DNA from: Verrucomicrobiota bacterium
GTDB taxonomy: Bacteria > Verrucomicrobiota > Verrucomicrobiia > Verrucomicrobiales > Akkermansiaceae
NCBI GenBank assembly: GCA_037134575.1
Contig: JBAXLW010000002.1
Coordinates: 5,181 to 69,180 of the forward strand
Direction of reading: 5' to 3'
Length of the DNA: 64,000 bases
A program made the translations under genes and the position numbers. Shown in pieces: positions 26,848 through 57,975 of the stretch; position 1 is the first letter of the stretch, and every line of letters begins with the position of its first letter. Below the pieces are notes generated by a model, which was not told the DNA's origin, made no database searches, and saw nothing but the letters and a program-made list of their open reading frames with translations.

Positions 26848-26895
26848 CAGAAGCGAAGCGACGGCGGTCAATTGACACCCCGCCGCATTCGCCAG

Positions 26896-27915
26896 ATGCA
26901 AACCAATACCAAATCAACCAATACCCTGGCCATTCGCCGGGGCAAAATCACCCGACCTCAGAAGGTCGTCATCTATGGACCCGAAGGCGTCGGAAAATCG
27001 ACGCTCGCCGGCCAGACACCCGAACCCGTCTTCCTCGATACGGAGGGTGGCACTCACCACCTCGACGTCGCCCGCCTCGATGCGGCCGCGACTTGGGAGG
27101 AAATCACAGCCACCGTCACCCAGCTCGCCAAGGCGGATCACCCGTTCAAGACGCTGGTGATCGACACCGCCGACTGGCTGGAGAAGCGGCTGGCCGAGCA
27201 CTTGTGCCGGAAGTCGAACAAGGACTCCATCGAGGACTTTGGCTACGGCAAAGGCTGGGTGCTTCTCACCGAGGAGTTCGCCCGCTTCCTGAACTCGCTT
27301 GATGCCCTGCTGGCCCGCGGCATCCACGTTGTTTTCCTGGCACACGCCACGGTGAAGAAATTCGAAGCTCCTGACCAGGCAGGCAGCTACGACCGCTTTG
27401 AGCTGAAGCTGAGCAAGCAGGTCGCCCCGCTGGTCAAGGAATGGGCGGACGTCGTGCTCTTCGCCAACTACGTCACCAAGGTCGCAGAAAAGGACAACGG
27501 CAAGATGCGAGGCATCGGCGGCAAGGAGCGTGTGCTCTTCGCCACCCACACGGCGGCCTACGACGCAAAAAACCGTCATGGACTTTCCGACAAACTTCCG
27601 TTCGCTATCGATGCGTTGGCTCCCGTGTTCGGCGTTGCAGCGACGGTGCCGGGCGGCGCTGTCGCTGCCAGAACGGAGCCTGAGCCGTCACTCACCGACC
27701 GGATCTTCGCCGCGTTCCAGCAGAAAGCGGACATGGCCAACGTGGTGGATTTCTTGGTCGCCCGCGGCCAGCTTTCCTACACCGAGGAAGGTCCGCTGGA
27801 GTCCATCGACAATTTGGATCCTGCCTACGCCGCCCGGATGCTTGCGGATCCCGATCGATTCGTCGCCACCGTCAAAGAATGGGCCGCAGCCAACAGCCCG
27901 GAGGGAACGGTATGA
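26896..27915 (+). CDS. Phage AAA_24 (Sak4-like) ATPase / recombination protein
   Basis: VIYGPEGVGKST, FLDTEGG, LVIDTADWLE, FGYGKG; start set at MQTNT. Confidence 0.88.
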   Translation: MQTNTKSTNTLAIRRGKITRPQKVVIYGPEGVGKSTLAGQTPEPVFLDTEGGTHHLDVARLDAAATWEEITATVTQLAKADHPFKTLVIDTADWLEKRLAEHLCRKSNKDSIEDFGYGKGWVLLTEEFARFLNSLDALLARGIHVVFLAHATVKKFEAPDQAGSYDRFELKLSKQVAPLVKEWADVVLFANYVTKVAEKDNGKMRGIGGKERVLFATHTAAYDAKNRHGLSDKLPFAIDALAPVFGVAATVPGGAVAARTEPEPSLTDRIFAAFQQKADMANVVDFLVARGQLSYTEEGPLESIDNLDPAYAARMLADPDRFVATVKEWAAANSPEGTV

Positions 27916-28913
27916 GCGCACTTCGCCCTTCCAACCTGCCGAAGCTGGCGGTGTGCCCGTGCTACGAGAGCAATCCCGTGGCCGGCCCAGCCGCCGAGCG
28001 CGGCACGCTGCTTGATACCGCGTTCCGCGCCGAGCTGCTCGGTCTTGAAGAACGCCTCGTGATCGCCAACAAGCTGACGGGCGACGAGATCGCCGCTGTT
28101 GCGTGGTCAGTCTCGATGGTCCGGGCAATCTCCGGCCGCGAGCGAGTGCTTGCCCGGGAGGACGACTGCCGGGTGAAGATGCTCAACCTCACCGGCACGG
28201 CGGATGCCATCGTGCCGAGCAGGCTCACCCACTTCGACCTAAAGACCGGGGCGAGGCGCAATTACCGCGAGCAAATGGCAGCCTACGCCCTCGGCCTGAT
28301 GGGTGCGCACTTTGCCGGCGAGTGGACGGCGCACCTGTTGTTCTGCGACCAGCGGGAAATCGAGACGATCAAGTTCACCTACGAGGAGGCGCACGACATC
28401 GTCGATCAGGTCGTCAAGTCGTTCAACGATCCGGCGAAGAAGCCGAACCCCTGCGAATACTGCGGCTGGTGCGCCAAGGCGGATACCTGTCCGGCACGGC
28501 TCGCGATGGTCGGTGAGACACTGACGGTCACTGATCCGAGCTTCGATTTCGACGTGGTGCTCGCCGACCCGGAAAAGCTCGGACGATTCCTGACAGCTTG
28601 TGCATTTATCGAGGGCTTGCACGACCGAGCCAAGAAGATTGCCACCGAGCGAATCAAGACCGGCGGCAACGTCCCCGGCTGGAAGCTCGTCACCCGCAAG
28701 GGCAGCGAATTCGTCGATTGCGAAACCGTCGGCCACCACATCCAGCGCATGGGCTTTGGTCCGGTGCTCGCGGCCTACGGAAACCTACCAGCCAGCAAGT
28801 TCCGCGATTTGTGGAGCGAGCGGATGTCCAGCGAAAAGCCATTTCCGGAGGAGTCGGTGAAGCACGCCGCGCCCTCCGTCTATCTCAAACAAACCAAGAC
28901 CAAACCAAACTAA
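27912..28913 (+). CDS. DUF2800-like PD-(D/E)XK exonuclease
   Basis: GTADAI...FDLKTG, QMAAYALG, CEYCGWC..ADTCP metal-binding motif. Confidence 0.8.
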   Translation: MSALRPSNLPKLAVCPCYESNPVAGPAAERGTLLDTAFRAELLGLEERLVIANKLTGDEIAAVAWSVSMVRAISGRERVLAREDDCRVKMLNLTGTADAIVPSRLTHFDLKTGARRNYREQMAAYALGLMGAHFAGEWTAHLLFCDQREIETIKFTYEEAHDIVDQVVKSFNDPAKKPNPCEYCGWCAKADTCPARLAMVGETLTVTDPSFDFDVVLADPEKLGRFLTACAFIEGLHDRAKKIATERIKTGGNVPGWKLVTRKGSEFVDCETVGHHIQRMGFGPVLAAYGNLPASKFRDLWSERMSSEKPFPEESVKHAAPSVYLKQTKTKPN

Positions 28914-28917
28914 TACC

Positions 28918-29331
28918 ATGCCATCCTATACCTCATCCACTCCAAGCGAACGCCCTGAATTTGTTGAACCGGGCGACTACCAAGTCGAAATCATCGACGC
29001 GATCGAAACGATCAGCAAAGGCGGCCACGACATGATCGAGCTCAAGCTCAAAACGTCCGCTGGCAGCTATCTTTACGACTTCCTCGTCTTCATCCCGACC
29101 GCATTCTGGAAGATCGATTCCTTCCGCGCCGCCACTGGCGAGGATGTGAAACCCGATCAGGATGTCGAAATCAGTGCTGATCACGTCATCGGTCGCACCG
29201 GCACCGCTCGCCTCACCGTTGAGGAATACAACGGCAAGAAGCGCAACAAGGTCGTCGCCTGGATTGTCGGCACCGCGAAGCCCTCCGCTCAACCCCAACC
29301 CGCACGCCGTAGTGACAACGAACCCTTCTGA
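28918..29331 (+). CDS. DUF669 phage ssDNA-binding-like protein
   Basis: PGDYQVEIIDA, SKGGHDMIELKL, EEYNGKKRNKV and an acidic/aromatic C-terminal tip DNEPF. Confidence 0.8.
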   Translation: MPSYTSSTPSERPEFVEPGDYQVEIIDAIETISKGGHDMIELKLKTSAGSYLYDFLVFIPTAFWKIDSFRAATGEDVKPDQDVEISADHVIGRTGTARLTVEEYNGKKRNKVVAWIVGTAKPSAQPQPARRSDNEPF

Positions 29332-29335
29332 AAAA

Positions 29336-30838
29336 ATGGGCCTTCGTGCCTACCAAATGAAAGCCCGGATGGACATCCACAAAGGCTTTGAAGATTTCGA
29401 CCGCCAGCTCGGCGTGCTGCCAACGGGTGCGGGTAAGACCATCTTGTTCAGCCGACTGGCGCAAGATTACCAACCTCGGCGCACGTTGATTCTCGCACAC
29501 CGCGAGGAACTCATCACCCAGGCAGTGGACAAGCTCCGTGTCTCGACCGGCATCGAGGCGCAGGTCGAGATGGGCAGTGAGCGAGCGTCACTCGACGCAC
29601 CGGTCGTCGTCGCCTCCATCCAAACGCTTATGCGCGAAAAACGCCGTGAGCGGTGGCCGCGGGATCACTTCGGCCTCGTGGTCGTCGATGAAGCGCATCA
29701 TGCGCTAGCGGACAGCTACCTCAGCACGCTCGGATATTTCCACGATCATGCGAAAGTGTTAGGGGTGAGTGCTACGCCAGACCGTGGTGACAAAAAGAAT
29801 CTCGGAAAATACTTCGAGAACATCGCCTGCGAGGTATCTTTGCTGGATCTCATCAACCAAGGATGGCTCGCACCGATCAAGGTTAAGACCGTTCCGCTGG
29901 GGATAAACTTGCGCGGCGTTCGGACGAGCCATGGCGACTTCAGCGCCGATGATCTCGGTCACGCGCTGGAACCATACCTCGAACAAATCGCCGACGTGTT
30001 AGTCGAACACCGGCACCGCAAGACGCTCGTCTTCCTGCCGCTCATCGCCGTGTCGAAACGCTTCGCAGAAATCTGCCGCGAGCGTGGCTTGTTAGCCGAG
30101 CACGTCGACGGGCAGACGAAAGAGCGAAAGGCAACGCTGGAGCGATTCAAGCGGGACGAGACGCGCATCCTCTGCAATGCGATGCTGCTCACCGAAGGAT
30201 ATGACGAGCCATCGATTGATTGCATCGTCTGCCTGCGCCCAACCAAGGTGCGTGCGCTGTATTCGCAGATCATCGGTCGTGGCACGCGGATGCATGGCGG
30301 CAAGGACCACTTGCTTGTGCTCGATTTCCTCTGGCAGTCGGAGGAACACAGCCTGATGCGGCCGGCCAACTTGATCGCCGAAGATGATGTGGACGCGAAG
30401 GCACTCACGGAAAAGATCGGGGCCGAGGGCGACCTCGAAGAGGCACGCGAGGAAGTGAATGCGGATCGCACTCGATCACTCACCGACCGGCTACGGGCTA
30501 ACCAAATGCGGAGCGGCAGTGTGCTTGATCCCATTGAGCTTGCCATCTCGCTCAAAGAAGCCGCGCTCGCCGACTATGTTCCGACCATGGCATGGCAGGC
30601 CGCCGAGCCCACGTACAAGCAGCTCGATGTGCTGCAGAAGTTCGGACTGGATATCATCAACATAAAGACCAAAGGGCACGCGTCGTTGATTCTCAACCGT
30701 CTCATCACTCGTCGCAAGCTCGGTCTAGCGACGCCAAAACAAGTCCGCGTGATGCGCCTCCACGGCCATCAACGTCCGGAGATCGCCACCTTTGAGGACG
30801 CCAAGGCATTCCTCGACACCAAGTTCTCTAAACGCTGA
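29336..30838 (+). CDS. Superfamily 2 DEAD/DEAH helicase
   Basis: LRAYQ, LPTGAGKT, VVVDEAHH, SATP, LTEGYD, QIIGRGTR; start at MGLRAYQ. Confidence 0.92.
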   Translation: MGLRAYQMKARMDIHKGFEDFDRQLGVLPTGAGKTILFSRLAQDYQPRRTLILAHREELITQAVDKLRVSTGIEAQVEMGSERASLDAPVVVASIQTLMREKRRERWPRDHFGLVVVDEAHHALADSYLSTLGYFHDHAKVLGVSATPDRGDKKNLGKYFENIACEVSLLDLINQGWLAPIKVKTVPLGINLRGVRTSHGDFSADDLGHALEPYLEQIADVLVEHRHRKTLVFLPLIAVSKRFAEICRERGLLAEHVDGQTKERKATLERFKRDETRILCNAMLLTEGYDEPSIDCIVCLRPTKVRALYSQIIGRGTRMHGGKDHLLVLDFLWQSEEHSLMRPANLIAEDDVDAKALTEKIGAEGDLEEAREEVNADRTRSLTDRLRANQMRSGSVLDPIELAISLKEAALADYVPTMAWQAAEPTYKQLDVLQKFGLDIINIKTKGHASLILNRLITRRKLGLATPKQVRVMRLHGHQRPEIATFEDAKAFLDTKFSKR

Positions 30839-30843
30839 CCCTT

Positions 30844-32874
30844 ATGGCAAGATACCGATCATCTGGGCTAACCATGACCTTGCCGCGTCGCACGCTGGAA
30901 TACCTTCAGCGCGGCGCTAGCGAGGGGATGCGCAATGCCGAACTCTTTGATGCATCCTGTCAGTTCCGCGATGCCGGCCACCCGCTGGAGGAAACGGAAA
31001 GTCAGTTGTTAGCCCGCGCACTGGCCGACGGACTAACTGAATCCGAAGCGCGGACGACCATCCGGTCTGTCTATGCCCGCAACTCACGGGAGCCACTCGG
31101 AACTGGCATGGCCCCGACTCCGAAAATGTCATCGCCCGCGATGCCACGACGGCCGTCACCGGTTCCAGTCCACCACAAGCGATCCACGATGGCGCTGCCT
31201 AACACGATTGACGACGGCTTCGTCCGTCTGCTCGACGCGTGTTTTCAGCCCGATGAATTCGTCTCCATTGCACCTGCTGCGGAGTCCGATGAAGGTGGCA
31301 TCGTGCCGCGCCGTGGGGTGACGCTCACGGCCTCCGAATGGAAATCCAAGGTCGCGGCCAAGGGCGGCATTGATCGCGTCTTCAGCACGAAGCTCGGGCT
31401 ATTCCTGCGGATCAACCCGATGACCAAGGGCGGCGCAAAGAACGACGACGTGACTGCCTTCCGCCATGTGCTCGTCGAGTTCGACCGCGACGAGGCCGGC
31501 AAGGAGATCCCGAAAGAAGAACAATACCACGCGGTTGTCGCCAGCGGCATGCCGGTCGCAGCCTTGATCGATTCGGGCAACAAAAGCCTGCACGCGTGGA
31601 TCCGGGTCGATGCGCCGGACGAGGCAGAATACAAGCGGCGCGTCGAAGTTATCTGGGGCTGGTTTTCCGGCATCAACCTGGACAAGCAGAACAGGAATGC
31701 TTCGCGCCTGTCTCGCTGTCCTGACGGCTGGCGCACGGTGGACGACAATGTCCGTCGCCAGTGCTTATTGGCCGTCGAATTCGGCGCGGAATCGTGGACG
31801 GCATGGGAGGCGGCGCACTCAAATTCCGACCTGCCGCCAATCTTACCCGGTGACGGATTCATGGGCCAGCCGGAGCCTGAACCGCCGCAGCTCGTCGATG
31901 GAGTGCTCCACCAGGGTGCCAAGATGGTGTTAGGTGGCCCTTCGAAGGCGCGCAAAAGCTGGTCGTTGATCGACCTGATGCTCTCAGTGTCCACAGGCAC
32001 GCCGTGGTGGGGGTTTCCGACGCGTCGTGGTCGTGCCCTCTATCTGAACTTCGAACTTCCTCCATTCGCGCTGCAATACCGCATTAACCGGATTGCGGCG
32101 GCCAAGGATATCTCCGACTTCACTGGCTTCGACATCTGGAACTTGCGCGGCCATGCCACCGACTTCTCAGCGCTCATCCCGAAGATCCTCGGCCGGATCC
32201 GCGACACCGGGTATTCGCTCATCTTGATCGACCCGATCTACAAAGGGCTTGGTTCACGCAATGAAAACGACGCCGGCGACATCGCAAGCCTGCTCAATGA
32301 AGTCGAGCAACTGGCATTGAAATCTGGTGCGGCCGCCGTCTTTGGTGCTCACTTCTCGAAGGGCAATCAAGCGGGCAAGGAATCGATCGATCGTATCGGC
32401 GGCTCGGGTGTCTTCGCTCGTGACCCCGACGTGATTCTAACGATGACGCCACACGAGGAAGACGACGCCCATGTCATCGACCTCACACTGCGTGCCCTAG
32501 CGCCCGTGAAGCCGTTTGTCGTCCGTTGGTGTGAGTCGATCTTCATCGCCGACCGCAACGCCGATCCTGCCGCCCTAAAGGCTCTGCAGGGCAATTTAAA
32601 GAGCGAGAAGGCAAAGACAACCTACAAGATGGGCAGCACGGCTGACCGCTTCGGCAAAGCAGTCGAAACCATGCCACCGATGCCCAATGGTCGCGTCCCT
32701 CAAGAGTCCGGCGTTCTGGCTTACATCTCCGACCGGATCGCCGAGATTGATGGCGACTGCACGCTCAAGGAAGCCCAGCGCGTCTTCTACTGCCTTGCTA
32801 ACATGAAGAGCGGTTCACCGCTTGTTTTCGACAAAGCAACTCGCCTGTGGAGGGGGCGTCGTCATGGAATTTGA
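30844..32874 (+). CDS. Primase-helicase (PriCT-like + AEP/RepB-like primase + AAA_25)
   Basis: RNAELF helical domain, VLVEFD...DSGNKSLHAW primase motifs, GGPSKARKS Walker A, ILIDP, HFSKG. Confidence 0.85.
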   Translation: MARYRSSGLTMTLPRRTLEYLQRGASEGMRNAELFDASCQFRDAGHPLEETESQLLARALADGLTESEARTTIRSVYARNSREPLGTGMAPTPKMSSPAMPRRPSPVPVHHKRSTMALPNTIDDGFVRLLDACFQPDEFVSIAPAAESDEGGIVPRRGVTLTASEWKSKVAAKGGIDRVFSTKLGLFLRINPMTKGGAKNDDVTAFRHVLVEFDRDEAGKEIPKEEQYHAVVASGMPVAALIDSGNKSLHAWIRVDAPDEAEYKRRVEVIWGWFSGINLDKQNRNASRLSRCPDGWRTVDDNVRRQCLLAVEFGAESWTAWEAAHSNSDLPPILPGDGFMGQPEPEPPQLVDGVLHQGAKMVLGGPSKARKSWSLIDLMLSVSTGTPWWGFPTRRGRALYLNFELPPFALQYRINRIAAAKDISDFTGFDIWNLRGHATDFSALIPKILGRIRDTGYSLILIDPIYKGLGSRNENDAGDIASLLNEVEQLALKSGAAAVFGAHFSKGNQAGKESIDRIGGSGVFARDPDVILTMTPHEEDDAHVIDLTLRALAPVKPFVVRWCESIFIADRNADPAALKALQGNLKSEKAKTTYKMGSTADRFGKAVETMPPMPNGRVPQESGVLAYISDRIAEIDGDCTLKEAQRVFYCLANMKSGSPLVFDKATRLWRGRRHGI

Positions 32875-34603: not shown

Positions 34604-34608
34604 CCAAT

Positions 34609-34680
34609 CGCAGGGAGGGACGGTCCCAGGCGAGCCTCATACACTCGCCTCTGTGGGTTCAATTCCCGCCCCTGCAACCA
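34609..34680 (+). tRNA. tRNA-Met(CAT)-like element with shortened D-arm (possibly pseudo-tRNA)
   Basis: Acceptor CGCAGGG/CCCTGCA with a C1:A72 mismatch, discriminator A and encoded CCA. T-arm GTGGG-TTCAATT-CCCGC. Anticodon loop CT-CAT-AC. D region only 15 nt; 72 nt total. Confidence 0.6.
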
Positions 34681-34694
34681 CTCATCCAATCATC

Positions 34695-34910: not shown

Positions 34911-34973
34911 AATGTGCCATCGCGACTTCCCACATAACGGGGCGTCGGGACGTTGACTCCAAGTGCTAGAGAA

Positions 34974-35321: not shown

Positions 35322-35360
35322 GTCTCGTCGTGAAGTATTCTGCCAGCTATCAGATTCCAT

Positions 35361-39052: not shown

Positions 39053-39550
39053 ATGAACAAACTGTATTGGATCGTCTGCGACGACAAGGACACCAACGTA
39101 TTCGAAGGCCGCTTTCAAGGTCGCACACGCGGCGAAGCCTTGAAGTTCCTCAAGCAGTCCATCGGGCGCAAGACGCTCAACGGACTGGTCTTCACCATCA
39201 CCGAAATACCGGTGCTACTGATCCGCGAGATCGTCGCGGAAATCCTCGCCGAGGGCAGCAACGCCACGCCTGCCGTGAATATCGTGCCGCTCATCAGACC
39301 AGACCCCGAGGCTAGCCCGGGACGTTACGACGCGTTTGCCGACGCGGTTGAGCCCGAACCAACGCCCGCAGAAGCCACGCCGCCCAAGCCCGCCAAGAAG
39401 GTCGGCAATCCCGGTCACGGCGACGACCACTGGTCGCAGGTGAAAGCCTACTGGCTCGAATGCCGCAGCGTGAAACAGACCGCCGAGCATTTCAACCTCT
39501 CACCTAACACGCTCAAAACTCGCAGTCGGAGAGAGGGGTGGGGCAAATGA
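39053..39550 (+). CDS. Hypothetical protein with possible C-terminal HTH
   Basis: SVKQTAEHFNLSPNTLKTRSRREGW pattern. Confidence 0.7.
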   Translation: MNKLYWIVCDDKDTNVFEGRFQGRTRGEALKFLKQSIGRKTLNGLVFTITEIPVLLIREIVAEILAEGSNATPAVNIVPLIRPDPEASPGRYDAFADAVEPEPTPAEATPPKPAKKVGNPGHGDDHWSQVKAYWLECRSVKQTAEHFNLSPNTLKTRSRREGWGK

Positions 39551-39882
39551 GTGTCTCCGACTGGAAACCGACCACCGTCGATGGCGCGACCGTCTGCCAC
39601 TACTCTGACCGAACCGCCTGCACGGTGATTCGCGTCAGCCCCAGCGGCAAGACCGTCTGGATGCAGGAAGACACCGCCACGCTCGACGGCTGGAAACCCA
39701 AGTTCATCCCTGGCGGATTCGCCGGCCACTGCGTGAACAACGCCGAACAGCGGTATGTCTATCAGCCGAATCCGCAAGGTGTGATTCATCGCGCCAGCCT
39801 GCGCAAGGACGGCAACTTCCGCACCACCAACGGCGAGGCGGTCATCCCAGGCCGTTACCACTTCCACGACTACAACTTCTGA
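39547..39882 (+). CDS. Hypothetical phage protein
   Basis: Coupled (ATGA) ORF starting MSVSDW. Confidence 0.7.
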   Translation: MSVSDWKPTTVDGATVCHYSDRTACTVIRVSPSGKTVWMQEDTATLDGWKPKFIPGGFAGHCVNNAEQRYVYQPNPQGVIHRASLRKDGNFRTTNGEAVIPGRYHFHDYNF

Positions 39883-40121
39883 TGAGAGTCGCAGTCGAAA
39901 AATACCGCAAACTCGATGGCTACGCCACGCGCTACTGGTCGGTGACGGTGAATGGCGAACTGCTCGCCGTCACCGTCTACCGCAAGGGCGCGAAGGCCGT
40001 CGCTCAAGCCATCACTAACCAAAACCAAGATCCCCATGTCACAACCCTTCAAGATTCTACCAACACCGTCACCATGTCCCACAAGTCCACCGCTGGCGTG
40101 GCGACCTATCAGACCCGATGA
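39882..40121 (+). CDS. Hypothetical protein (79 aa)
   Basis: Coupled TGATG start; its 3' end overlaps the next gene. Confidence 0.55.
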   Translation: MRVAVEKYRKLDGYATRYWSVTVNGELLAVTVYRKGAKAVAQAITNQNQDPHVTTLQDSTNTVTMSHKSTAGVATYQTR

Positions 40122-40701
40122 CCTTTGCGGCCCAGCCGCCACGGTCGCACGCCGACTTGTCACCAAGGCGCAAAAGCTTCACGATGATCCAAGCGTTCCA
40201 GTAAAGATCCTGCTCTACGGTCCGCCCGGTGTCGGCAAGACCAGCATCGCGGACATGGTGGCCGACACGCTGTCGGGCACGCGCTTCGCCATCGAGGAAT
40301 TCAACGGCAAGCTCGTCACGGTCGAAACCGTGAAACAGTGGATGTCCAGCCTCGGCACCTGCTCGCTCTTCGGAGTCTACTCAGTGAAAATCATCAACGA
40401 GATGGACCGCTGCACGCGGGATGCTCAGGACCTGCTCCTGAGCTACCTCGACCGAATGCCATCAGGGCGGGCTGTTATCGGCACGAGTAACCTGCAACTC
40501 GACCTTCTAACGGAGCGGTTCCAAACACGCTTCCAGTCGATCAAGCTCGCCGCCCCATCCACCGAGGACATCGCCACCATGCTCCGCTGCCACTGGCCGG
40601 TCGATGAAGCGACCTCACTACGGATCGCGGTGGGTTCTGGCGGATGCGTACGGGCCGCACTGGCCGATCTGGAATCCTGGCTAGATGCCAGCGACTGTTG
40701 A
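40036..40701 (+). CDS. Small AAA+ ATPase (clamp-loader/RarA-like clade)
   Basis: LLYGPPGVGKTS, IINEMD (Walker B variant), ERFQTRF; start set at MSQPF. Confidence 0.8.
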   Translation: MSQPFKILPTPSPCPTSPPLAWRPIRPDDLCGPAATVARRLVTKAQKLHDDPSVPVKILLYGPPGVGKTSIADMVADTLSGTRFAIEEFNGKLVTVETVKQWMSSLGTCSLFGVYSVKIINEMDRCTRDAQDLLLSYLDRMPSGRAVIGTSNLQLDLLTERFQTRFQSIKLAAPSTEDIATMLRCHWPVDEATSLRIAVGSGGCVRAALADLESWLDASDC

Positions 40702-40718
40702 CAGCCGCATCCACGGCG

Positions 40719-42886: not shown

Positions 42887-43335
42887 TCATCCTGCTAGAC
42901 CTCAACTTTACGCTCGTGGCGAACAACCCAGCACGAGGCACCACGCCCGTCCGTATGGACAAGCGACTGGCCAACGAGCAATACCGCCAGTGGCTGGTGG
43001 AACTGGTGCGGCCTCACACGGTTGTCCTCATCACCGCCCGCCCGGACACCTGGACGGTTAGAACTCTCGACCGTATCGAGGAGCAAACCGGATGGCGGCC
43101 GCAGGATGCATGCTTCGCGCCGAAGGGCTGGTGGAATCCACCTACGATCAAAGAGCATCTACTCAAGAAGGACGTGTTCCCAACCCACGGCGATGACGCA
43201 CGCTATCTCGCGATCGAAAGCAACCCGAGGACCCGCGAGATGTACGCGAAATTTTCCATCCCGTGCTTATGGGTGACCCCTAAAGGTGACCGACTAACGG
43301 ATGGCGCACGGATCGTGAAAAGCCTGCCGTGTTGA
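42883..43335 (+). CDS. HAD-superfamily (PNKP-phosphatase-like) protein
   Basis: ILLDLNFTL (DxD to DxN variant), LITARP, IKEHLLK, AIESN; start MIILL. Confidence 0.7.
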   Translation: MIILLDLNFTLVANNPARGTTPVRMDKRLANEQYRQWLVELVRPHTVVLITARPDTWTVRTLDRIEEQTGWRPQDACFAPKGWWNPPTIKEHLLKKDVFPTHGDDARYLAIESNPRTREMYAKFSIPCLWVTPKGDRLTDGARIVKSLPC

Positions 43336-43351
43336 CATCTGTCACGCGGGC

Positions 43352-44074: not shown

Positions 44075-44095
44075 GTTGACGGGGAGTCACCTCGT

Positions 44096-45375: not shown

Positions 45376-47192
45376 AGGTGCTCCACGACATCTGGCGCGA
45401 AGCGTGGCAACCGCCCGACCGCAGGCCGCCGTGGGAATGGTGTGAGGATCACATCGATGCCATCCCGTATTCGCCGAACCCGGGACGCTTCCGGTCGGAA
45501 AACTCGCCGTGGATTCGCGAGGTCATGGAATCGTTGGTCGACCCGCGCATCCGTCTTGTCTCGATCATCGCATCGGTTCAGTCGTCCAAGACCACGGCTC
45601 CGGAGCTAACGCTTTGCTACATCATCACCAATCTTCCCGGGCCGACGCTCTGGCTCGACCAAACCGACGAGGATGCCCGCGATTATTCCGAGGCGCGGCT
45701 CCAAAAACTCTTCGACCAATGCCAGCCAGTGGCACGGCTCATGCCCACCGGCATCCATCGCCACAAGCGCAAGAACAACGCCATCCACTTCAACAACGGC
45801 ATGGTGCTGTGGATTCTAGGGGCGCACAACAAGACCAACCTGCAACGCCGCTCGATCCGCTGGTTGGTCGGCGACGAAACATGGCGCTGGCCGACCGGAC
45901 ACATGGCGGAAGCCGAAGCACGCGTCACCGCATTCGGCTGGCTCGGCAAGTGCATCTTCATGAGCCAAGGCGGCGAGGAGGATGACGACACTCACCGGAA
46001 ATTTCTCACCACCGACCAGCGCGAGTGGACGTTTGCCTGCCCGAAATGCGACCACCGCCAAGCGTTCAAGTGGGAATGCGTCGAGTGGAGCAAATCGGCC
46101 AGGGATGAATTCGGCGAGTGGGATTTCGACGAAGTCCGGCGTACCACCGCCATGCGCTGCGAGTCGTGCAACCACTACTTCAACGACGGCGAGCGGACGC
46201 GGCGCGAACTCAATGCCACCGGTGCTTTCGTATCGAAGAATCCGAAGGCGTCGAAGGAAAACGTCGGCTTCCATTGGAATGCCCTGTGCGCGATGAGCTG
46301 GGGCCAGTTGGCGGAACTCTACCTGCGGGCGAAGACGGCGGCGCGTAAGGGTGACGTGTCGTTGCTCCAACAGTTCTATCAGAAGAGGCTCGGTCTGCCG
46401 TGGCGCGAATACGTCGAGGACTACAAGTTAGAGATCGTCAAATCCGGCTACAAGCGCGGCGAGACGTGGGAAGAAGAAGGCGCGATCGATCCGAAATCAG
46501 GCAAGATTCTCGCCGCCCCGCTACCCGAGCGCACCGGCCTGATCCCGCTGCGATTCATCACGGTGGACTGCCAGATGGATCACTTGTTCTTGGTGGTTCG
46601 CTCGTGGTCGGCGGAGGGATCAAGCCGTCTGATGTGGAACGAACGGATTCTAACATTCACCGACATCGACGTGTTGCAGGAACGCTTCGATGTTCACCCA
46701 AGCCTCGTGTTTCTCGACGCTGGCTATGCGACCTACGACGTCTATCGGGAATGTGCCAAGCGAGGATGGGTCGCACTCATCGGCGACCGCCGCCCAGTCT
46801 ATGCGCACAAGGGTCGCGATGGCAAAACCGTCCAGCGATTTTACTCACCCCGGCGCAAGGTCGTGCTTTCGCATCGCCAGTCCTGCCACGTCCACTACTG
46901 GAGCAACCTCAACATCAAGGACACGCTGGCCCGTCTCCGTCGCAACCAAGATGCGTCCCAAGGCCCGACGTGGGAAGTGCCTGACGACATCGACGACGAC
47001 TACCTCGCCCAGTTGGAAAGCGAGCAGCGCATCAAGGAAAAAGGTCAGTGGATGTGGAAGCAAATCGGCTCGCGACCGAATCACTTTTTTGATTGTGAGT
47101 CCATGCAGGCGACAGCGGCGACCATGCTCAAGATCGTCGGTCGGGAATCCATTGCCGCCGCCCCGGTTGACACTCCGGACGAGGGAGCATGA
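45372..47192 (+). CDS. terL: Terminase large subunit (lambda gpA family)
   Basis: PWIREVM, ASVQSSKT, LVGDETW, CPKC..C..C zinc finger, ITVDCQ, NHFFDCE. Confidence 0.92.
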   Translation: MKVLHDIWREAWQPPDRRPPWEWCEDHIDAIPYSPNPGRFRSENSPWIREVMESLVDPRIRLVSIIASVQSSKTTAPELTLCYIITNLPGPTLWLDQTDEDARDYSEARLQKLFDQCQPVARLMPTGIHRHKRKNNAIHFNNGMVLWILGAHNKTNLQRRSIRWLVGDETWRWPTGHMAEAEARVTAFGWLGKCIFMSQGGEEDDDTHRKFLTTDQREWTFACPKCDHRQAFKWECVEWSKSARDEFGEWDFDEVRRTTAMRCESCNHYFNDGERTRRELNATGAFVSKNPKASKENVGFHWNALCAMSWGQLAELYLRAKTAARKGDVSLLQQFYQKRLGLPWREYVEDYKLEIVKSGYKRGETWEEEGAIDPKSGKILAAPLPERTGLIPLRFITVDCQMDHLFLVVRSWSAEGSSRLMWNERILTFTDIDVLQERFDVHPSLVFLDAGYATYDVYRECAKRGWVALIGDRRPVYAHKGRDGKTVQRFYSPRRKVVLSHRQSCHVHYWSNLNIKDTLARLRRNQDASQGPTWEVPDDIDDDYLAQLESEQRIKEKGQWMWKQIGSRPNHFFDCESMQATAATMLKIVGRESIAAAPVDTPDEGA

Positions 47193-50663: not shown

Positions 50664-50719
50664 TTTGAGCCGTCACTCTGGCTGTCTTCTCCCAGCTCCG
50701 TTGACACAACCGACCGGGC

Positions 50720-52033
50720 GTGAGCCCGGTAATTCAAAATCGCGAATGGTTGATTCAGCCTGATGCACTTCGGTCGATGATCGCTGCTGCGGATTCTTTC
50801 CGTGCGCTCGGCAATCCAGTCGTCCGTGACCAAGCATCCAGCTCTCTGCTATCCGTTGAAGATGGAGTGGCCACGGTATCAATCAGCGGCCCCATCATCC
50901 GCAAGCCCGACATCTTCGCCCGGGTGCTGATGGGCGCGACCGACTCCGAGGAAATCGGATCTGCGATTCAAGAAGCCGCCTCGCGTCCCGACATCAAAGC
51001 GGTGTTTTTGGACATCGATTCTCCAGGTGGAACCGTGGCCGGCACTCCCGAGCTAGCCGCTGCGGTTTCCGCCCTCGATAAGAAGAAGCCAGTCTATGCC
51101 TTCTCATCCGGCCTGATGGCGTCCGCCGCCTACTGGATTGCCAGCCAAGCGCGTGCGATTTACGCCACGCCCTCCGCACAAGTCGGGTCCATCGGTGTCG
51201 TGCAAGCGGTGGTCGATCGTTCGGCAGCCATCAATGCGGCAGGCATCAAGGTGGAGGTTTTCTCGGTCGGCAAATACAAGGCGATGGGCGCTCCAGGCAC
51301 TCCGCTCACCGATGACCAGCGTGAACTCATCCAATCAAACCTCGCAGAAATCGCCGCCGAGTTCCACGATGCGGTGCTTTCCCGTGGTCGTGCGATTCCC
51401 GCCGAGGCCATGGAAGGCCAGACTTTTAGCGGCAAGCAGGCCCAGCGCCACAACCTCGCAGGCATGGTTCCCGACCGCGCAGAAGCCATGCGCCGACTCA
51501 AAATTTATCACACCTCGGTTGACACGAAATCACGGGTGATGACTACCGCACTCGAAGACCAACTCCTCGAAGCCCGCACGCAGGTCGATGACCTCACACG
51601 GGACCACCAAGCCCAAACCGAACTGCTCAACGAAGCATCGACTCAAGTCGAATCGCTGCGCGGTGAAGTGGAGCTACTTGCCGCTGAAATCGACACGCTC
51701 AAGGCAGAGTGCGACGAGGCGAAAATCGAATCTACCAACCTGATCGCGCAACGAGATTCCGCAACCGGCCAAGTCGCCACTCTGCAATCCCGCTGCACCG
51801 AGCTGGAGGCGTCCCAAACGGATTTCGACCGCAAGCTGCAACTCGAAGTCGCCCGCGTCGTTGCCAGCACCGGCACCACGATGCCCGCCCGCGTCACCCC
51901 AGCTGGTGACACCAACCTAGCCGCCGATCTCCATTCGCGCTTTGCCGCCATCACCGATCCCACCGAGCAGACCGCCTTCTGGCGCAAGCTCACCCCCGAC
52001 CAACAATCTCTCATTCTCAAACACCAAGCCTAA
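50720..52033 (+). CDS. S49 (gpC-like) prohead protease with C-terminal coiled-coil scaffold
   Basis: DIDSPGG, MASAAYWIAS, GSIGV, GKYKAMG; coiled coil after about residue 274. Confidence 0.9.
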   Translation: MSPVIQNREWLIQPDALRSMIAAADSFRALGNPVVRDQASSSLLSVEDGVATVSISGPIIRKPDIFARVLMGATDSEEIGSAIQEAASRPDIKAVFLDIDSPGGTVAGTPELAAAVSALDKKKPVYAFSSGLMASAAYWIASQARAIYATPSAQVGSIGVVQAVVDRSAAINAAGIKVEVFSVGKYKAMGAPGTPLTDDQRELIQSNLAEIAAEFHDAVLSRGRAIPAEAMEGQTFSGKQAQRHNLAGMVPDRAEAMRRLKIYHTSVDTKSRVMTTALEDQLLEARTQVDDLTRDHQAQTELLNEASTQVESLRGEVELLAAEIDTLKAECDEAKIESTNLIAQRDSATGQVATLQSRCTELEASQTDFDRKLQLEVARVVASTGTTMPARVTPAGDTNLAADLHSRFAAITDPTEQTAFWRKLTPDQQSLILKHQA

Positions 52034-52042
52034 TAACTCGCC

Positions 52043-52939: not shown

Positions 52940-52970
52940 GCCACTCTCCTGCAAATGTGGATCATGGGAA

Positions 52971-53007
52971 ACGCCCTCTCCGGGAAACTGGAGGGGGTGT
53001 TTTGTTT
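52971..53007 (+). terminator. Rho-independent terminator
   Basis: 13-bp stem ACGCCCTCTCCGG-GAAA-CTGGAGGGGGTGT (with G:U pairs) followed by TTTGTTT. Confidence 0.8.
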
Positions 53008-53033
53008 GAGGTGATTGACACCATGCGCAGTGA

Positions 53034-53342: not shown

Positions 53343-53353
53343 ACATCACCACC

Positions 53354-53755
53354 ATGAATCAAGCGATCGAAGACTATCTGGCCGAACTGATCACCTCCGT
53401 GCCGTTCGTTCCCGCGCTTGCGATTTTCACAGGGACTTCCTCTAACATCCGCCCGCCTGAATCCCATGCGGTTCTGGTTCTAGCAGATTCGATTGAAAAC
53501 GTGGTCGGCCCACTGCATCGAGCGACGGTCAAGATTCTCGTCTCGTCACCCACCGACAACCGGACCCAGCACGCTGCGCTCGCCCATGCGGTCAAGGGCA
53601 TCATGGAAGGTGTGCTGCCTGCGGCGAGCGAGTTCACGGTCGGTGGATTCCGCACCAAATCCCACGCCACTGCAGTGAGTGACGACGACCGCTGGCTCAC
53701 CACCATCGAGGGGATTCTCGGTGTGGATTGGACACCGGTTGACAACCCGCCGTAA
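53354..53755 (+). CDS. Putative tail terminator/neck protein
   Basis: Position and size. Confidence 0.55.
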   Translation: MNQAIEDYLAELITSVPFVPALAIFTGTSSNIRPPESHAVLVLADSIENVVGPLHRATVKILVSSPTDNRTQHAALAHAVKGIMEGVLPAASEFTVGGFRTKSHATAVSDDDRWLTTIEGILGVDWTPVDNPP

Positions 53756-53760
53756 GAGTC

Positions 53761-54075
53761 ATGCCCGCCACCTTCGGAGTCACCAACCTGCACGGACTCG
53801 CACCCGCCACCGGCCACGCTCAGGAATCGTCTGCCGACGCGTCCATCGAGGTTGCCACGCTGCGTGACTCGCTCGGCGTGACGGTGGTGGCCGTGCCGAA
53901 GAAGCTCATCACCCGCAGCATTACCCTATCGGGCAAAGGCACCGTGAATTTTGGCGACGTGGTCGCCGGTGCCATCACCAAAGGAGCAGCGTTCGTGACA
54001 TCGGTCAAGGTGACGGAAAGCAACGATGAATTTCCATCCTTCGAGATCCAAGCAACCGCCTACGACGACGCCTAA
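53761..54075 (+). CDS. Small structural protein (tail-tube-like?)
   Basis: Beta-rich, 104 aa; resembles the next gene. Confidence 0.55.
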   Translation: MPATFGVTNLHGLAPATGHAQESSADASIEVATLRDSLGVTVVAVPKKLITRSITLSGKGTVNFGDVVAGAITKGAAFVTSVKVTESNDEFPSFEIQATAYDDA

Positions 54076-54090
54076 TACCTACCCACTTCC

Positions 54091-54429
54091 ATGCCCGCAG
54101 CATTCAATGAAATCGGAGTCAAGTGCGTCACCGCCGCCCTAGTGGAGAGCGTGGACGTGCAGAAGCAGCTCGAACACAAGATCATCAAGAAAAGCGATGG
54201 TGCGTTCGAAACCGGCAACCGCTACGACCCGTCCTTCAGTTTCTCCATCAAGGGCCGGGGTGTCGTTGAGGAAGATCTTCTAGGTGGAGCCTCCGCCGCC
54301 TATGTGCCTGAGCAGATCACGGGTGGAACCACCATCATCACCACCGTCAAAAACTCCCAGACCAACGAGGACTACGACTCGTTTGAACTATCGGGAGTGA
54401 ACCATCCAGCCGCAGACGGCACTGCCTAA
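54091..54429 (+). CDS. Small structural protein (tail-tube-like?)
   Basis: Beta-rich, 112 aa; resembles the previous gene. Confidence 0.55.
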   Translation: MPAAFNEIGVKCVTAALVESVDVQKQLEHKIIKKSDGAFETGNRYDPSFSFSIKGRGVVEEDLLGGASAAYVPEQITGGTTIITTVKNSQTNEDYDSFELSGVNHPAADGTA

Positions 54430-54464
54430 CTATTAGCAGAACAAGATCACCTGAAAATCACTCC

Positions 54465-54932
54465 ATGAAAGAAGGAACCACCCTGAGCATCGTGCGCGAC
54501 CACGACACCAAACCCACCGAAAGCCGCAACACTCGATTGGTCGCAGCGGCACTCTCCAGCGGCGGCATGTTCGCCACTGAAGCCGCCTATTCCGACACGG
54601 TCGAACAGACGCCCAACGGCGCGAAGCGAACCGTCACCTGGCTGATGGACGGCGCGGCCAAACTCAGCTTTGAACCCATCGAGGGCGCGGAAAGCATCAC
54701 CTTCGATGAGTTCCGCAAGCGCTATGAATCACTCGACTGGTGCGAAGCCAACGCCAACCACCCGATTGCCTATCTGCGGGCGATGAATGACCAGCACAAC
54801 CGGCTGCTCGACAAGGTGAAGACGATGCGCCCGATGCTGCTGATCCGCAAAGGCAAGCGCATTGCCATCGTGCCGAGCGGTTCCGACGAAGCCTCGAAAG
54901 CCACCCGCGAGCAAATCCTTTCCGAATTCTGA
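54465..54932 (+). CDS. Hypothetical protein in tail module
   Basis: Clean ORF with an A/C-rich leader. Confidence 0.65.
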   Translation: MKEGTTLSIVRDHDTKPTESRNTRLVAAALSSGGMFATEAAYSDTVEQTPNGAKRTVTWLMDGAAKLSFEPIEGAESITFDEFRKRYESLDWCEANANHPIAYLRAMNDQHNRLLDKVKTMRPMLLIRKGKRIAIVPSGSDEASKATREQILSEF

Positions 54933-54936
54933 CATC

Positions 54937-55356
54937 ATGAACGACCGCGAACTACAACTGGCCACTGGCATGATCGACAGCGGGGAACGCCGAATCGGCA
55001 ACCTCAAGCTGCGTCCTTATACGATGGGGTCGATGCAGCTGGCCTATCTGCTCAAGCTCACCATGTTCACTCGTGGCAAGGATGATCCACCGTTGGAGCT
55101 TGATGATTTGGAAGAGCAGCGGCAGATCATGGCCTTTGCATGGATGCAGTCGGCGGATGAAGATGACATCGCGGACGCAGTCCGTGACGACACCGTGGAC
55201 CGCTGCGTGCTCAAGTTCTCTCTCAACGTCACCTTCGACATGCTCCCGGGACTGATGGCGGAAATCAACCGGATCAACGCGATGCTTGCCGCATCCAGCG
55301 TCCGCGTCGAAAGCAAGTATCCGTCCAGCAATGACGATGCGCCGGGAAAGTCCTGA
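54937..55356 (+). CDS. Tail assembly chaperone (gpG-like)
   Basis: Upstream of the tape measure gene; ends PGKS* on a GGGAAAG slippery site; start MNDRE. Confidence 0.8.
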   Translation: MNDRELQLATGMIDSGERRIGNLKLRPYTMGSMQLAYLLKLTMFTRGKDDPPLELDDLEEQRQIMAFAWMQSADEDDIADAVRDDTVDRCVLKFSLNVTFDMLPGLMAEINRINAMLAASSVRVESKYPSSNDDAPGKS

Positions 55357-55598
55357 ATCCCGGCTGGCTGGCGAGCGCGGTGTTCACCATCGCCAAGGAC
55401 ACCGGTTGGAGCGAGGACTTCATCATCTGGCAGCTGCCGATGGCGCGTGCCCTCCAGTATTACCACTGCTCGCTCCAAGCGGCCAATCTCTGGACGCTTG
55501 AACCACCCACCGAAGAGACGATGCAGGCACTCGCACCGGACGCGTTGATCGGACTCATCGACCGCATGATTGACGAAACCGAAAGTGACGATGGGTGA
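55344..55598 (+). CDS. -1 frameshift extension (gpT-like part of gpGT)
   Basis: GGGAAAG at 55344-55350; the -1 frame is open (KVLNPGWLASAVFTIAKDTGW...) to 55598. Confidence 0.8.
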   Translation, partial: GKVLNPGWLASAVFTIAKDTGWSEDFIIWQLPMARALQYYHCSLQAANLWTLEPPTEETMQALAPDALIGLIDRMIDETESDDG

Positions 55599-56265
55599 CG
55601 AAGTGAAATTCAAACTGCATGTCGATGAGTTCCAGCGGGCCGCCGACCGGCTCGCCCATTATTCGAAGCGCGACGGCGAGACCTTCATGAAGGAACAGGT
55701 TCGTGGCTTCATCCGGCACCTGTTGGACTTCACACCTCCGAGCCGGGGCAGCACACGCGGTGTGAAGGCAAAGAAGCTGGGTGAACAGGCGATCACCGGC
55801 GACATCCGCGCCGTGTTCCGCGGAGTGTCTGACCCGAAGCGGGCGGATGTTGATTCGGTCGCCCAAATGCGCTCGGTTCTCAAGTCTCGGCGGAAGAGCG
55901 GCAGCATGCGTGTGGCCAAAGGCGGCACCAAGCTCAAGGCACCGAAGGCGCTGATTGCCGAGCTGATCAAGGCGAAGAAGGCGCGGGTCGGCTATCTGGC
56001 ATCGGCGTGGGCCACGGCGGCGCAGAGCGTTGGGAAAATCCGAGTGCCCGCGTGGGTGTCGCGCCACGCCGCGCCCGGTAGCACCGACATCAAGGTGAAC
56101 GGTGGTGAAATTAGCGCGTCGATCACCAACGCGGTGGAGTGGGCGGCGAAGGTCAATGGACTTCGTGCGCGGGTGAATGCCGCGCTCCGGGTGCAGACCC
56201 GTTCCATGGAAAAACGGCTGCTCTATTTCTTCGCCAACGTGAAGGGGAAGTCCGGCTTCGATTGA
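55591..56265 (+). CDS. Hypothetical basic virion/neck protein
   Basis: ORF between the chaperone and tape measure genes; start MGDEV chosen. Confidence 0.6.
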   Translation: MGDEVKFKLHVDEFQRAADRLAHYSKRDGETFMKEQVRGFIRHLLDFTPPSRGSTRGVKAKKLGEQAITGDIRAVFRGVSDPKRADVDSVAQMRSVLKSRRKSGSMRVAKGGTKLKAPKALIAELIKAKKARVGYLASAWATAAQSVGKIRVPAWVSRHAAPGSTDIKVNGGEISASITNAVEWAAKVNGLRARVNAALRVQTRSMEKRLLYFFANVKGKSGFD

Positions 56266-56283
56266 CAAGTCACCCAGTGCTAG

Positions 56284-57975
56284 ATGGCCAAGCTCACCGC
56301 ACTGCTGACACTCAACACGGCTGGATTCCAGTCCGCGTTGAAGGGAGCGAAGGCATCAACCGGCGCGTTGAAAAACTCGATGTCCACCATGTCGTCGGGC
56401 GCTTCCAAGGGTATCACATCGATGGGCAGCGCCATGAAATTCGTGGCAAAGGGAACTGCGGTTGTAGCCGCCGCTGTGGCCGCCGCAGGCGCTGCAATTG
56501 GCGCGTTGACCTACAAGCTGATCTTGTCGGGTGAGGCAGCGAACTCTGCCGACGCCCGCGTCCGCAACATCGCAAAGTCGATGGGCCTGTTCGGCGACCA
56601 ATCCGACGCGGTGGCCGAGCGACTCAACAACCTCGCGGACAAGATCGAGTTGCAAACCGGAGTGGATGGCAATGCGATTCAAATGACCCAGGCGAAGCTG
56701 CTCACCTTCAAGGAACTCGCCAACACCGCCGACGAGCTTGGCGGCAATTTTGATCGGGCCACCCAAGCGGCCGTGGACATGGCAGCAGCTGGTTTCGGTG
56801 CTGCCGAACAGAACGCCGTCCAGCTCGGCAAGGCACTCAACGATCCGGTCAATGGGCTCGCGGCGTTGCGGCGCTCGGGGATCACCTTCACCGAAGATGA
56901 GAAGGCAAAGATCAAGACTCTGGCCGAATCCAACCGGATGCACGAGGCACAGGCGTTGGTTCTCGCCGCCATTGAAAAGCAGGTCGGCGGCACAGCAGCG
57001 GCAACTGCGGACGCGTCAGTTCAGATCAAGGCCGCGCTGAATCAGGGCTTCGAGGAAGTGGGCAAACCGCTTGCCTCCGCCCTCGCATCCATCACTCCGC
57101 AGTTCCTTGAATTTGTGGAAATGGCCAAGCCTAAGCTGGCGGAAGCCGGACAGTTTCTCGTGGCGATCTTCCGCAGCGGCGAGGCACTCAACCTCGTCTG
57201 GTCATCGCTCAAGCTGGCGTTCGCACAGAGCGTGAATTTCCTGTGGGCCACCCTGCGAGCGACCATCGCCGCCGCCGGCCAATACATCGTCGAGTATTTC
57301 AAAACGGCGGTCACCTTCTTCCAAGTCCTAACCACGCCCGAGTTCTGGAGCGGAATGGGCAATGCCATCATCGGGATTTTTCTATCAGCCATCAGCTTCT
57401 TGCAGAAGGGTTTCGCGGAGATCATCGAGGTCGCCCGTCCGCTGCTTGAAATCTTCGGCAAGGATGCCGCGCTTGATGGCATCCAGAAAACGATCCGAGA
57501 AAGCGCGGCGATCCTCGACGAAGATGCGGCGGCGCGATTCTCGAAGGCGGGTGATCTGTTGGAGCCTGCCGCCCAGAAGATCGCCCAACGCCTGGCCGAG
57601 GCCGGGGAGAACGTGAAGACCCGATTCAGCGAGACATTCGCCAACACGGCGGTAGCTATCGACACGTCCGGCATGAAGCGCGAGTTCGGCGAAACCGTGC
57701 AGCGCATCAAAGCGGCCATTCCACCAGCCAAGGCGGGCAAGCAAATCGGAATGGCGGCAGCGGAAGAAAAGCCGACGGCTCCGGTAGTCATCGCGGGCGG
57801 ATCAGGTCAGCTCGGTTCCTTTGCGCAATCCATGAACATGCTTTTCGGCCGCAGCGCGAATGCCGGGCTCCTTGAGGAAAACAAGCGGCAGACCGACCTA
57901 CTCAAGAAGATTCAAGACAATACCAAAGGCAAAGGCACCACCACCACGACACCGGGGGAGGCGGTTTTCGCGTAA
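56284..57975 (+). CDS. Tape measure protein
   Basis: Ala-rich helical protein with AVQLGKALNDPVNGLAALRRSGITFT motif; follows G/GT. Confidence 0.88.
   Translation: MAKLTALLTLNTAGFQSALKGAKASTGALKNSMSTMSSGASKGITSMGSAMKFVAKGTAVVAAAVAAAGAAIGALTYKLILSGEAANSADARVRNIAKSMGLFGDQSDAVAERLNNLADKIELQTGVDGNAIQMTQAKLLTFKELANTADELGGNFDRATQAAVDMAAAGFGAAEQNAVQLGKALNDPVNGLAALRRSGITFTEDEKAKIKTLAESNRMHEAQALVLAAIEKQVGGTAAATADASVQIKAALNQGFEEVGKPLASALASITPQFLEFVEMAKPKLAEAGQFLVAIFRSGEALNLVWSSLKLAFAQSVNFLWATLRATIAAAGQYIVEYFKTAVTFFQVLTTPEFWSGMGNAIIGIFLSAISFLQKGFAEIIEVARPLLEIFGKDAALDGIQKTIRESAAILDEDAAARFSKAGDLLEPAAQKIAQRLAEAGENVKTRFSETFANTAVAIDTSGMKREFGETVQRIKAAIPPAKAGKQIGMAAAEEKPTAPVVIAGGSGQLGSFAQSMNMLFGRSANAGLLEENKRQTDLLKKIQDNTKGKGTTTTTPGEAVFA

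Follow-up and report, generated by a model that had tools for sequence, protein, structure and literature searches.

How can genes be expressed when the −35 word of a bacterial promoter stands so close in front of them that the start codon occupies the place of the −10 element? This question is raised by a siphovirus-like prophage in the genome of a freshwater Akkermansiaceae bacterium (Verrucomicrobiota; GenBank assembly GCA_037134575.1), in which the hexamer TTGACA, hereafter called the box, precedes many start codons at a nearly fixed distance. The stretch of DNA analysed, hereafter the window, comprises 64,000 nucleotides (nt) and corresponds to C2:5181-69180 of a 2.45-Mb, 204-contig genome (G+C 57.7%). 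TTGACA is the canonical sigma-70 −35 word, and in this prophage and more than 100 uncultured relatives it is found 13–16 nt before the starts of about a quarter of the genes. The original prediction, made from the letters of the window, had described twelve such sites and offered as explanations a non-canonical promoter for leaderless mRNAs, an activator site, or an RNA-level translation signal that replaces the Shine-Dalgarno (SD) sequence. Among these the leaderless, non-canonical promoter is cautiously favoured here, the RNA-level signal is considered less likely, and the notion of a simple SD replacement is abandoned.

Occurrence of the Box in the Prophage and in the Host Genome

The window contains 14 copies of TTGACA compared with about 30 in shuffled sequences, and 13 of the 14 are located on the plus strand. 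Between 26.8 and 56.3 kb nine of the ten plus-strand copies sit 13–18 nt before a gene start, which corresponds to a binomial P of 2e-18 (about 41 starts with six positions each in 29.4 kb). In the whole genome 468 copies were counted on both strands, and when the first three candidate starts of each crude gene call were considered, 15 of them were placed 13–18 nt before a candidate start, nine of these in the prophage; the remaining 2.4 Mb of the genome gave about six weak cases. Thus the positional enrichment is present and phage-specific, host genes being devoid of the layout, and the observation is confirmed as highly non-random.

All twelve pairs of hexamer and start codon given in the original prediction proved to be correct, with nine exact TTGACA words, and several boxes do lie in the upstream coding sequence (47167, 51519, and 53739) or include its stop (40698, 43332, and 56262). 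The nine exact sites stand, the three sites with another last letter (33140, 44076, and 34953) are weaker, and two further sites, at 55570 and 61582, had been missed.

Conservation and Fine Structure of the Box

A set of 160 related loci (1.79 Mb in total) was gathered via the protease gene and oriented to the gene strand. In this set 837 copies of TTGACA lie on the gene strand and 60 on the opposite one, and the next start of a long open reading frame (ORF) follows at a gap, that is, the number of nt between the hexamer and the start codon, of 13 (276 cases), 14 (183), 15 (37), 16 (123), or 17 (11), about 630 cases in all. When the downstream proteins were clustered, 15 or more gene families proved to carry the box. 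Every related instance of the nine window families with exact TTGACA has the exact hexamer, while the flanks and spacers vary freely, and the box persists where the protease is only 41–49% identical, in other orders of the phylum. The box is a phage signal, not one of the host lineage, and is common to a large family of Verrucomicrobia phages.

The consensus of the box is G-TTGACA-CC, followed about 9–10 nt further on by a G-rich, GGGC-like patch. The boxed starts are ATG or GTG, with TTG in only 4 of 586 cases, and more than 90% of the gap-13 instances carry C at position −1, which matches a pyrimidine-purine start context. Another over-represented hexamer, TGCTAG, was considered as a second motif and rejected, being scattered through the coding sequence. 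The boxed genes are mostly late ones (packaging, head, tail, and a nested scaffold) together with the first early gene. In the window and in two near-complete relatives one early box is followed by about 13 kb with almost none and then by 8–11 boxes, and this late run begins 1.1–1.4 kb after a gene for a 165-amino-acid (165-aa) helix-turn-helix (HTH) protein, an arrangement in keeping with the promoter reading discussed below.

The nested gene is of particular value for the argument. The protease gene (50720-52033, with the S49 domain at residues 118–261) contains an in-frame internal ATG at 51539 whose product would be a 164-aa coiled-coil C-terminal protein, probably a nested scaffold by analogy with C/Nu3 of lambda. 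The internal box is read there as gTT GAC Acn (Val-Asp-Thr) and is TTGACA in 147 of 147 related instances, so that two synonymous sites (T and C) are frozen. An ordinary gene call would miss this nested gene. A start of another kind is also corrected by the box, because the ORF called from TTG 55570 (55570-56265) most likely begins at ATG 55591, the TTG being part of the box. The coordinates of all box sites and associated features are collected in Table 1.

Table 1. Box sites and associated features of the window, with conservation among related loci.
Feature	Position	Strand	Gap (nt)	Start codon and downstream gene	Remarks
Operator-like palindrome TGTGAACGTTCACA	26834..26847	.			Between XRE repressor gene and early box
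TTGACA	26872..26877	+	18	ATG 26896, Sak4-like gene	First early gene
TTGACG	33140	+	17	33163	Classical GGAGG present; without comparative support
TTGACT, possible box variant	34953..34958	+	15	ATG 34974, 115-aa protein (phrog_503)	TTGACT before the same ~120-aa ORF recurs in two near-complete relatives
165-aa HTH protein, possible trans factor	39053..39550	+			Dense late series of boxes starts 1.1 kb downstream
TTGACA	40698..40703	+	15	ATG 40719, ParB-like	Includes TGA stop of upstream AAA+ gene; TTGACA at gap 15 in 23/23 related instances
TTGACA	43332..43337	+	14	ATG 43352, methyltransferase (phrog_4752)	Includes upstream TGA stop; TTGACA in 30/30 related instances
TTGACG, weakly supported variant	44076..44081	+	14	GTG 44096, endonuclease VII-like	Two related instances only
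TTGACA	47167..47172	+	16	ATG 47189, 125-aa protein	Inside 3' end of large terminase gene; TTGACA, all at gap 16, in 34/34 related instances
TTGACA	50701..50706	+	13	GTG 50720, Peptidase_S49 head protease	TTGACA in 153/153 related instances
TTGACA	51519..51524	+	14	ATG 51539, in-frame internal start	Inside protease ORF
Strong intrinsic terminator	52968..53007	+			After major capsid gene; 16-bp stem, GAAA loop, U-tract
TTGACA	53015..53020	+	13	GTG 53034, head-tail attachment protein	TTGACA in 94/94 related instances
TTGACA	53739..53744	+	16	ATG 53761, 104-aa protein	Within upstream ORF; TTGACA in 67/67 related instances
TTGACG	55570..55575	+	15	ATG 55591, 224-aa protein	Kept in 24 relatives, mostly as TTGACG
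TTGACA	56262..56267	+	16	ATG 56284, tape measure	Includes upstream TGA stop; TTGACA in 16/16 related instances
TTGACG-N10-GGGC, then 11-nt CA-rich stretch	61582..61587	+	25	ATG 61613, 792-aa tail protein	Short-leader box; four related variants have the same layout

The Box as a Proposed Compact Promoter

The −35 part of a canonical promoter is present in the nine exact window sites and the 837 copies of the related loci. The −10 part is lacking: TAnnnT was found at 16–18 nt in 0 of 508 unique boxes, nor anywhere in the spacers, where a leaderless promoter would have its −10 element ending 5–8 nt before the ATG. A promoter scan picked up no box and revealed no canonical promoter on the plus strand from 26 to 45 kb. 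Moreover, the start codons follow the hexamer by 13–18 nt, and a canonical transcript start (about 29–30 nt after the −35 word) would thus not be situated upstream of them. Mis-called starts, with the true start about 30 nt downstream, were ruled out for Sak4, where ATG 26896 is the only possible start before the Walker A motif, and for the protease, whose N-terminus is conserved from residue 1–2. A sigma-54 type is also not indicated, as no TGGCAC-like −24 element was noticed on inspection of the upstream positions of the box matrix, which was not a formal scan. The claim that this geometry excludes a normal sigma-70 promoter is therefore upheld, the start codons being genuine.

According to these data we propose, at about an even chance of being right, that the box may be a compact promoter that works at the DNA level without a −10 element and yields leaderless or very short-leader mRNAs. 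The word is identical with the −35 word of the lineage. In the host TTGAC peaks 29–32 nt before starts, in support of a DNA-level role, and related phage loci hold canonical units of the form TTGACA-N17/18-TAGnnT-N5-7-ATG. In Akkermansia muciniphila Cappable-seq mapping detected ordinary −35/−10 signals and about 10% leaderless start sites (PMC4782308).

The avoidance of the antisense copy is the first observation to be considered. TGTCAA was observed 60 times on the gene strand of the related loci versus 153.5 expected, with an observed-to-expected ratio (O/E) of 0.48 after dereplication, and is the most depleted non-palindromic hexamer of 3,880, the ten ranked below it all being palindromes; sense-strand copies of TTGACA without a start amount to 82 of 837. 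For this avoidance there is no obvious reason under a signal confined to the mRNA, and it suggests selection on both DNA strands.

The second observation is the location of two boxes. The early box stands in front of the first early gene, 24 nt downstream of the immunity operator. Of 28 relatives in which Sak4 comes directly after the immunity region about 24 retain it; orthologues of Sak4 that follow another gene in their operon carry a CA-rich leader in its place. In relatives the palindrome at the same place is GGACATGTCC or GTGAGGACTCAC, the box remaining unchanged. The early box is situated in the loop of an inverted repeat (26853-26892) and is the only boxed site with such a repeat; the GGCGG..CCGCC inverted repeat stays when relatives swap the palindrome, and three relatives retain it without the box. 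The box at 53015 begins 7 nt after the end of the terminator behind the major capsid gene (−48 kcal/mol for a 105-nt stretch, z = −4.9), whose U-tract abuts the box in relatives. Both boxes thus appear to occupy places that need a promoter, which favours the DNA-level reading.

The third observation is the composition of the spacers. Their G content is 0.33–0.34 versus 0.19–0.20 in the last 13 nt before the starts of host and box-less phage genes (P = 2e-63 versus host), and being G-rich they are therefore unlike a translated leader. In rare variants from three families the box and GGG (spacer positions 10–12) are retained, while the ATG is 25–30 nt away after a G-poor stretch of 11–16 nt. Such an arrangement is expected if transcripts begin just after GGGC, and it is difficult to reconcile with a signal working at a fixed distance from the AUG. 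The site at 61582 is of this kind, and its TTGACG box is reportedly carried by the right-hand copy of a 14-bp direct repeat AGTTGACGCGGCGG of the tail module (60594-61593; 61560-61660 inspected).

If the box is a promoter, it would be read through the same specificity as the −35 hexamer of the lineage, and it would be recognised by region 4 of the host primary sigma factor, with a phage factor probably assisting or replacing the latter. No −10 element would be used, and transcription would start about 13–16 nt after the hexamer, at the ATG/GTG or a few bases before it; the boxed genes would therefore be carried on leaderless or very short-leader mRNAs. The other phage genes would be translated from polycistronic RNA via G-poor, CA-rich leaders, as host genes are. 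A narrower version, which we put forward tentatively and would rather doubt than assert, is a new promoter class with a single −35-type hexamer and no −10, where a contact of the sigma-region-4 type, provided by a host sigma factor remodelled by a phage protein or by a phage HTH mimic, would place the start on the first base of the start codon.

The 165-aa HTH protein is a candidate reader of the box and is regarded as only a lead. A Pro/Ala/Glu linker joins its N-terminal domain to a C-terminal three-helix HTH; among 690 homologues the best 120 are 78–96% identical, and there is a faint match to Sigma70_r4_2 (E = 0.11). The gene is followed by those of a 114-aa protein and of a 249-aa AAA+ protein (39053-40701), just upstream of the dense box series. 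The AAA+ protein gave only generic AAA+ and clamp-loader matches. No sigma-like gene was found in the phage with Pfam or PHROG.

A number of facts weigh against the promoter. To our knowledge, no sigma-70-family holoenzyme binds a −35 word and starts 13–16 nt downstream without a −10, and the geometry is without structural precedent for holoenzymes of this type. The host genes do not use the layout. As the same box precedes early and late genes, it cannot set timing alone, and with a box every one to four genes and only one terminator in between, the boxes are more numerous than promoters need to be. A translation signal would account equally well for the tight coupling to the start codon, the nested start included. 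The TGA of the box shares its frame with the start codon in 12 of 15 families (gap 13 or 16); the main exception is the nested scaffold, whose internal start allows no in-frame stop, and the promoter model does not explain this preference. Finally, the reading of the 165-aa protein as a sigma factor gained no support, since the AlphaFold2 model (mean pLDDT 65) has an HTH like generic Fis/NtrC/LuxR-type ones and no significant fold or sequence match was obtained; its homologue was detected in 5 of 11 distant metagenome-assembled genomes (MAGs), and of the six without a match four clearly carry boxes and two carry few, all on fragmentary contigs.

The Box as a Possible Signal in the mRNA

The start regions of 963 host genes show no SD signal; they are depleted in G between −20 and −1, and the ATG is preceded by CC. 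The box-less phage genes likewise have no SD and possess G-depleted, CA-rich leaders like those of the host. The 16S ribosomal RNA (rRNA) is missing from this MAG, and that of a same-genus relative, used instead, ends in a normal anti-SD, CACCUCCUUU. UUGACA has no complementarity to the anti-SD (CCUCC). The idea that the box replaces the SD sequence has to be given up, because host genes, as well as box-less phage genes, have no SD at all and there is nothing to be substituted.

An action on mRNA may be of another kind. UUGACA 13–16 nt before the start would be a binding site for the ribosome or for an RNA-binding protein of host or phage and would drive or gate initiation, serving genes with GC-rich upstream sequence and no CA-rich leader, including the internal scaffold initiation. 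We consider this explanation unlikely, although it has to be taken seriously. It accounts for the strict strand specificity and the narrow distance to the start codon in at least 15 gene families, for boxes inside operons without terminators, and for the use of the box at an in-frame internal start, where lambda has an internal ribosome-binding site. The GGGC patch tracks the start codon when the gap goes from 13 to 14, and the UGA of the box is preferentially in frame with the start. The start-associated sequences (SAS) of Cluster K mycobacteriophages are a precedent (PMC3203893), and a conserved, initiator-like tRNA(CAT)-like element occurs in the phage family.

Against a signal in the mRNA stands first of all the word itself, which agrees with the −35 consensus in all six letters (1 in 4096 a priori), and next the strong depletion of the antisense strand. 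The early box would require an unseen promoter inside the repressor gene, and the variants with the ATG 25–30 nt away nevertheless retain box and GGG. Specific versions of the idea were also tried and rejected. For pairing with the ribosome no UGUCAA and no convincing complementarity were found in the same-genus 16S rRNA, the best duplex being a weak match in helix 34. No conserved hairpin presents the box, since pair statistics of the flanks show no nested helix and positions −2/+7 are anti-correlated. Termination and reinitiation at the TGA of the box were not supported either, as upstream genes do not systematically end there and, by a noisy upstream-ORF heuristic, stop there only in a minority of cases.

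Less Probable Explanations

It is improbable, in our estimation, that the boxes are stoperator-like asymmetric DNA sites at which a phage protein blocks early initiation and elongation at gene junctions. The layout would fit, with a single site in the immunity/early-promoter region and about ten equally oriented ones at gene junctions, and the phage does encode a highly conserved HTH protein. Stoperators change along with repressor specificity and immunity type, whereas the box is invariant beside three different operator palindromes or immunity types and at 41–49% protein identity. The XRE repressor pairs here with palindromic operators and not with the box, and the HTH gene belongs to the lytic operon, not to the immunity module. 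Stoperators are described as 13-bp asymmetric, orientation-dependent sites, more than 20 per genome, which are bound by the immunity repressor of L5 in Cluster A phages, and nothing in this description ties them to a fixed start-codon distance or to an internal in-frame start (PMC9283540).

RNA processing, where an endoribonuclease would cut the polycistronic RNA at a fixed distance after UUGACA and so generate leaderless mRNAs, is regarded as highly improbable. It would explain the fixed spacing, the strand specificity, and the positions in operons and in a coding region, and the G-rich spacers would not need to act as leaders. Yet no such nuclease was identified here, and we know of none with a UUGACA-offset specificity; the early box and the post-terminator box would still need an upstream promoter, the antisense depletion would stay unexplained, and no RNA structure proved to be conserved.

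Chance, or a by-product of composition or shared upstream ancestry, is practically excluded and already refuted by these tests: many instances are orthologous, so that raw counts inflate the number of independent events, but the window alone gives P = 2e-18, the hexamer is invariant although flanks and spacers vary freely within families, the box is kept at 41–49% protein identity, the internal box freezes synonymous sites, and at least 15 unrelated gene families carry it.

Genomic Setting and Other Observations

The prophage extends from about 26.2 kb to the end of the window, with genes nearly all on the plus strand. The immunity module (25543-26892) contains two minus-strand genes, for an XRE repressor (26253-26846) and an IrrE/ImmA-like M78 peptidase (25543-26256). 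Further genes encode a Sak4-like protein, an exonuclease, a helicase, and a primase, and accessory genes are also present; others code for the 165-aa HTH protein, the AAA+ protein, ParB-like proteins, and methyltransferases. The packaging, head, and tail genes include small and large terminase subunits, portal, S49 protease, major capsid, head-tail proteins, and tape measure. Relatives of the phage genes were encountered almost only in Verrucomicrobia MAGs (Akkermansiaceae, Luteolibacter, Haloferula, Chthoniobacterales, and Terrimicrobiaceae). In INPHARED no cultured phage relative above 33% identity was present, and the literature searched gave no description of a TTGACA start box.

A tRNA-like element with a CAT anticodon is located at 34609-34680 on the plus strand and is characterized by a C1.A72 mismatch, a miniature D-arm, and an encoded ACCA end. 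It was missed by ARAGORN at default settings and scored as tRNA-Met(cat) at relaxed ones, Rfam matches were below threshold, and two related phage contigs have it with 92–94% conservation. Possibly it is an initiator-like tRNA of the phage, which would suit leaderless translation or a translation-level mechanism alike.

On the gene strand of the 160 related loci the ten most under-represented hexamers (O/E 0.12–0.37) are all palindromes: CTCGAG, GTCGAC, GGCGCC, CGATCG, CACGTG, GTGCAC, GGGCCC, CAGCTG, AAGCTT, and ATCGAT. This pattern indicates that restriction sites are strongly avoided in the phage family.

Significance

If the box is a promoter, an RNA polymerase would start without a −10 element and at a distance from the −35 word that current structural models disallow, and a whole phage lineage would run its late programme on leaderless messages. 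Should the new promoter class prove to be real, a quarter of the phage genes would have leaderless mRNAs, a shortcut between transcription and translation in a phylum devoid of SD sequences. If the box acts on RNA instead, it would be the first defined start-site signal in the phylum that does not use SD pairing. For practical purposes the box provides an exact sequence rule for the calling of starts in Verrucomicrobia phages, as for the scaffold at 51539 and the corrected start at 55591, and a marker for spotting these phages in metagenomes; as a compact control element it might be tried in the engineering of Akkermansia-type bacteria.

Comparison with Known Systems

In lambda the S49 protease gene C has an in-frame internal start, from which the C-terminal scaffold Nu3 is made via an internal ribosome-binding site. 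The protease gene of the present prophage likewise has an in-frame internal start yielding a putative C-terminal scaffold, and differs in that this start is preceded by a TTGACA box.

The late promoters of T4 consist of TATAAATA, a −10-type word at −13 to −6 that is used by gp55/gp33 with the sliding clamp, and have leaders of variable length. In common with them the box is one short word before many late genes, often situated in the upstream gene, with no second element and in a layout that the host does not use. Unlike them it is a −35 consensus whose end lies 13–16 nt before the start codon, and a sigma-like gene was not detected in the phage.

Leaderless sigma-70 promoters of Actinobacteria and Deinococcus have the −35 element, 17 bp, the −10 element, and the ATG 5–7 nt later. 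The box shares with leaderless sigma-70 promoters the same −35 word and a start at a fixed distance, and its lineage can use leaderless mRNAs, as shown by Akkermansia (PMC4782308); it differs in the absence of the −10 (0 of 508) and in a hexamer that is about 16 bp too near to the start codon.

The stoperators of Cluster A phages such as L5 resemble the boxes as oriented asymmetric sites, one at the early promoter and the rest at gene junctions, while the box does not change with immunity type and is tied to start codons.

The SAS/ESAS of Cluster K phages are asymmetric repeats in one orientation upstream of 11–19 genes per phage, for which a function was not shown (PMC3203893). The SAS is a 13-mer, GGGATAGGAGCCC, with an SD core, 3–7 nt from the start and restricted to non-structural genes; it is conserved across subclusters, practically absent from the host, and sometimes spans the upstream stop (PMC3203893). 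The box is similarly asymmetric, in one orientation (837 versus 60), upstream of many starts, and nearly absent from the host, whereas it is a −35 consensus without SD, 13–16 nt from the start, and precedes mainly packaging, head, and tail genes. In concept the SAS of Cluster K are its closest analogue.

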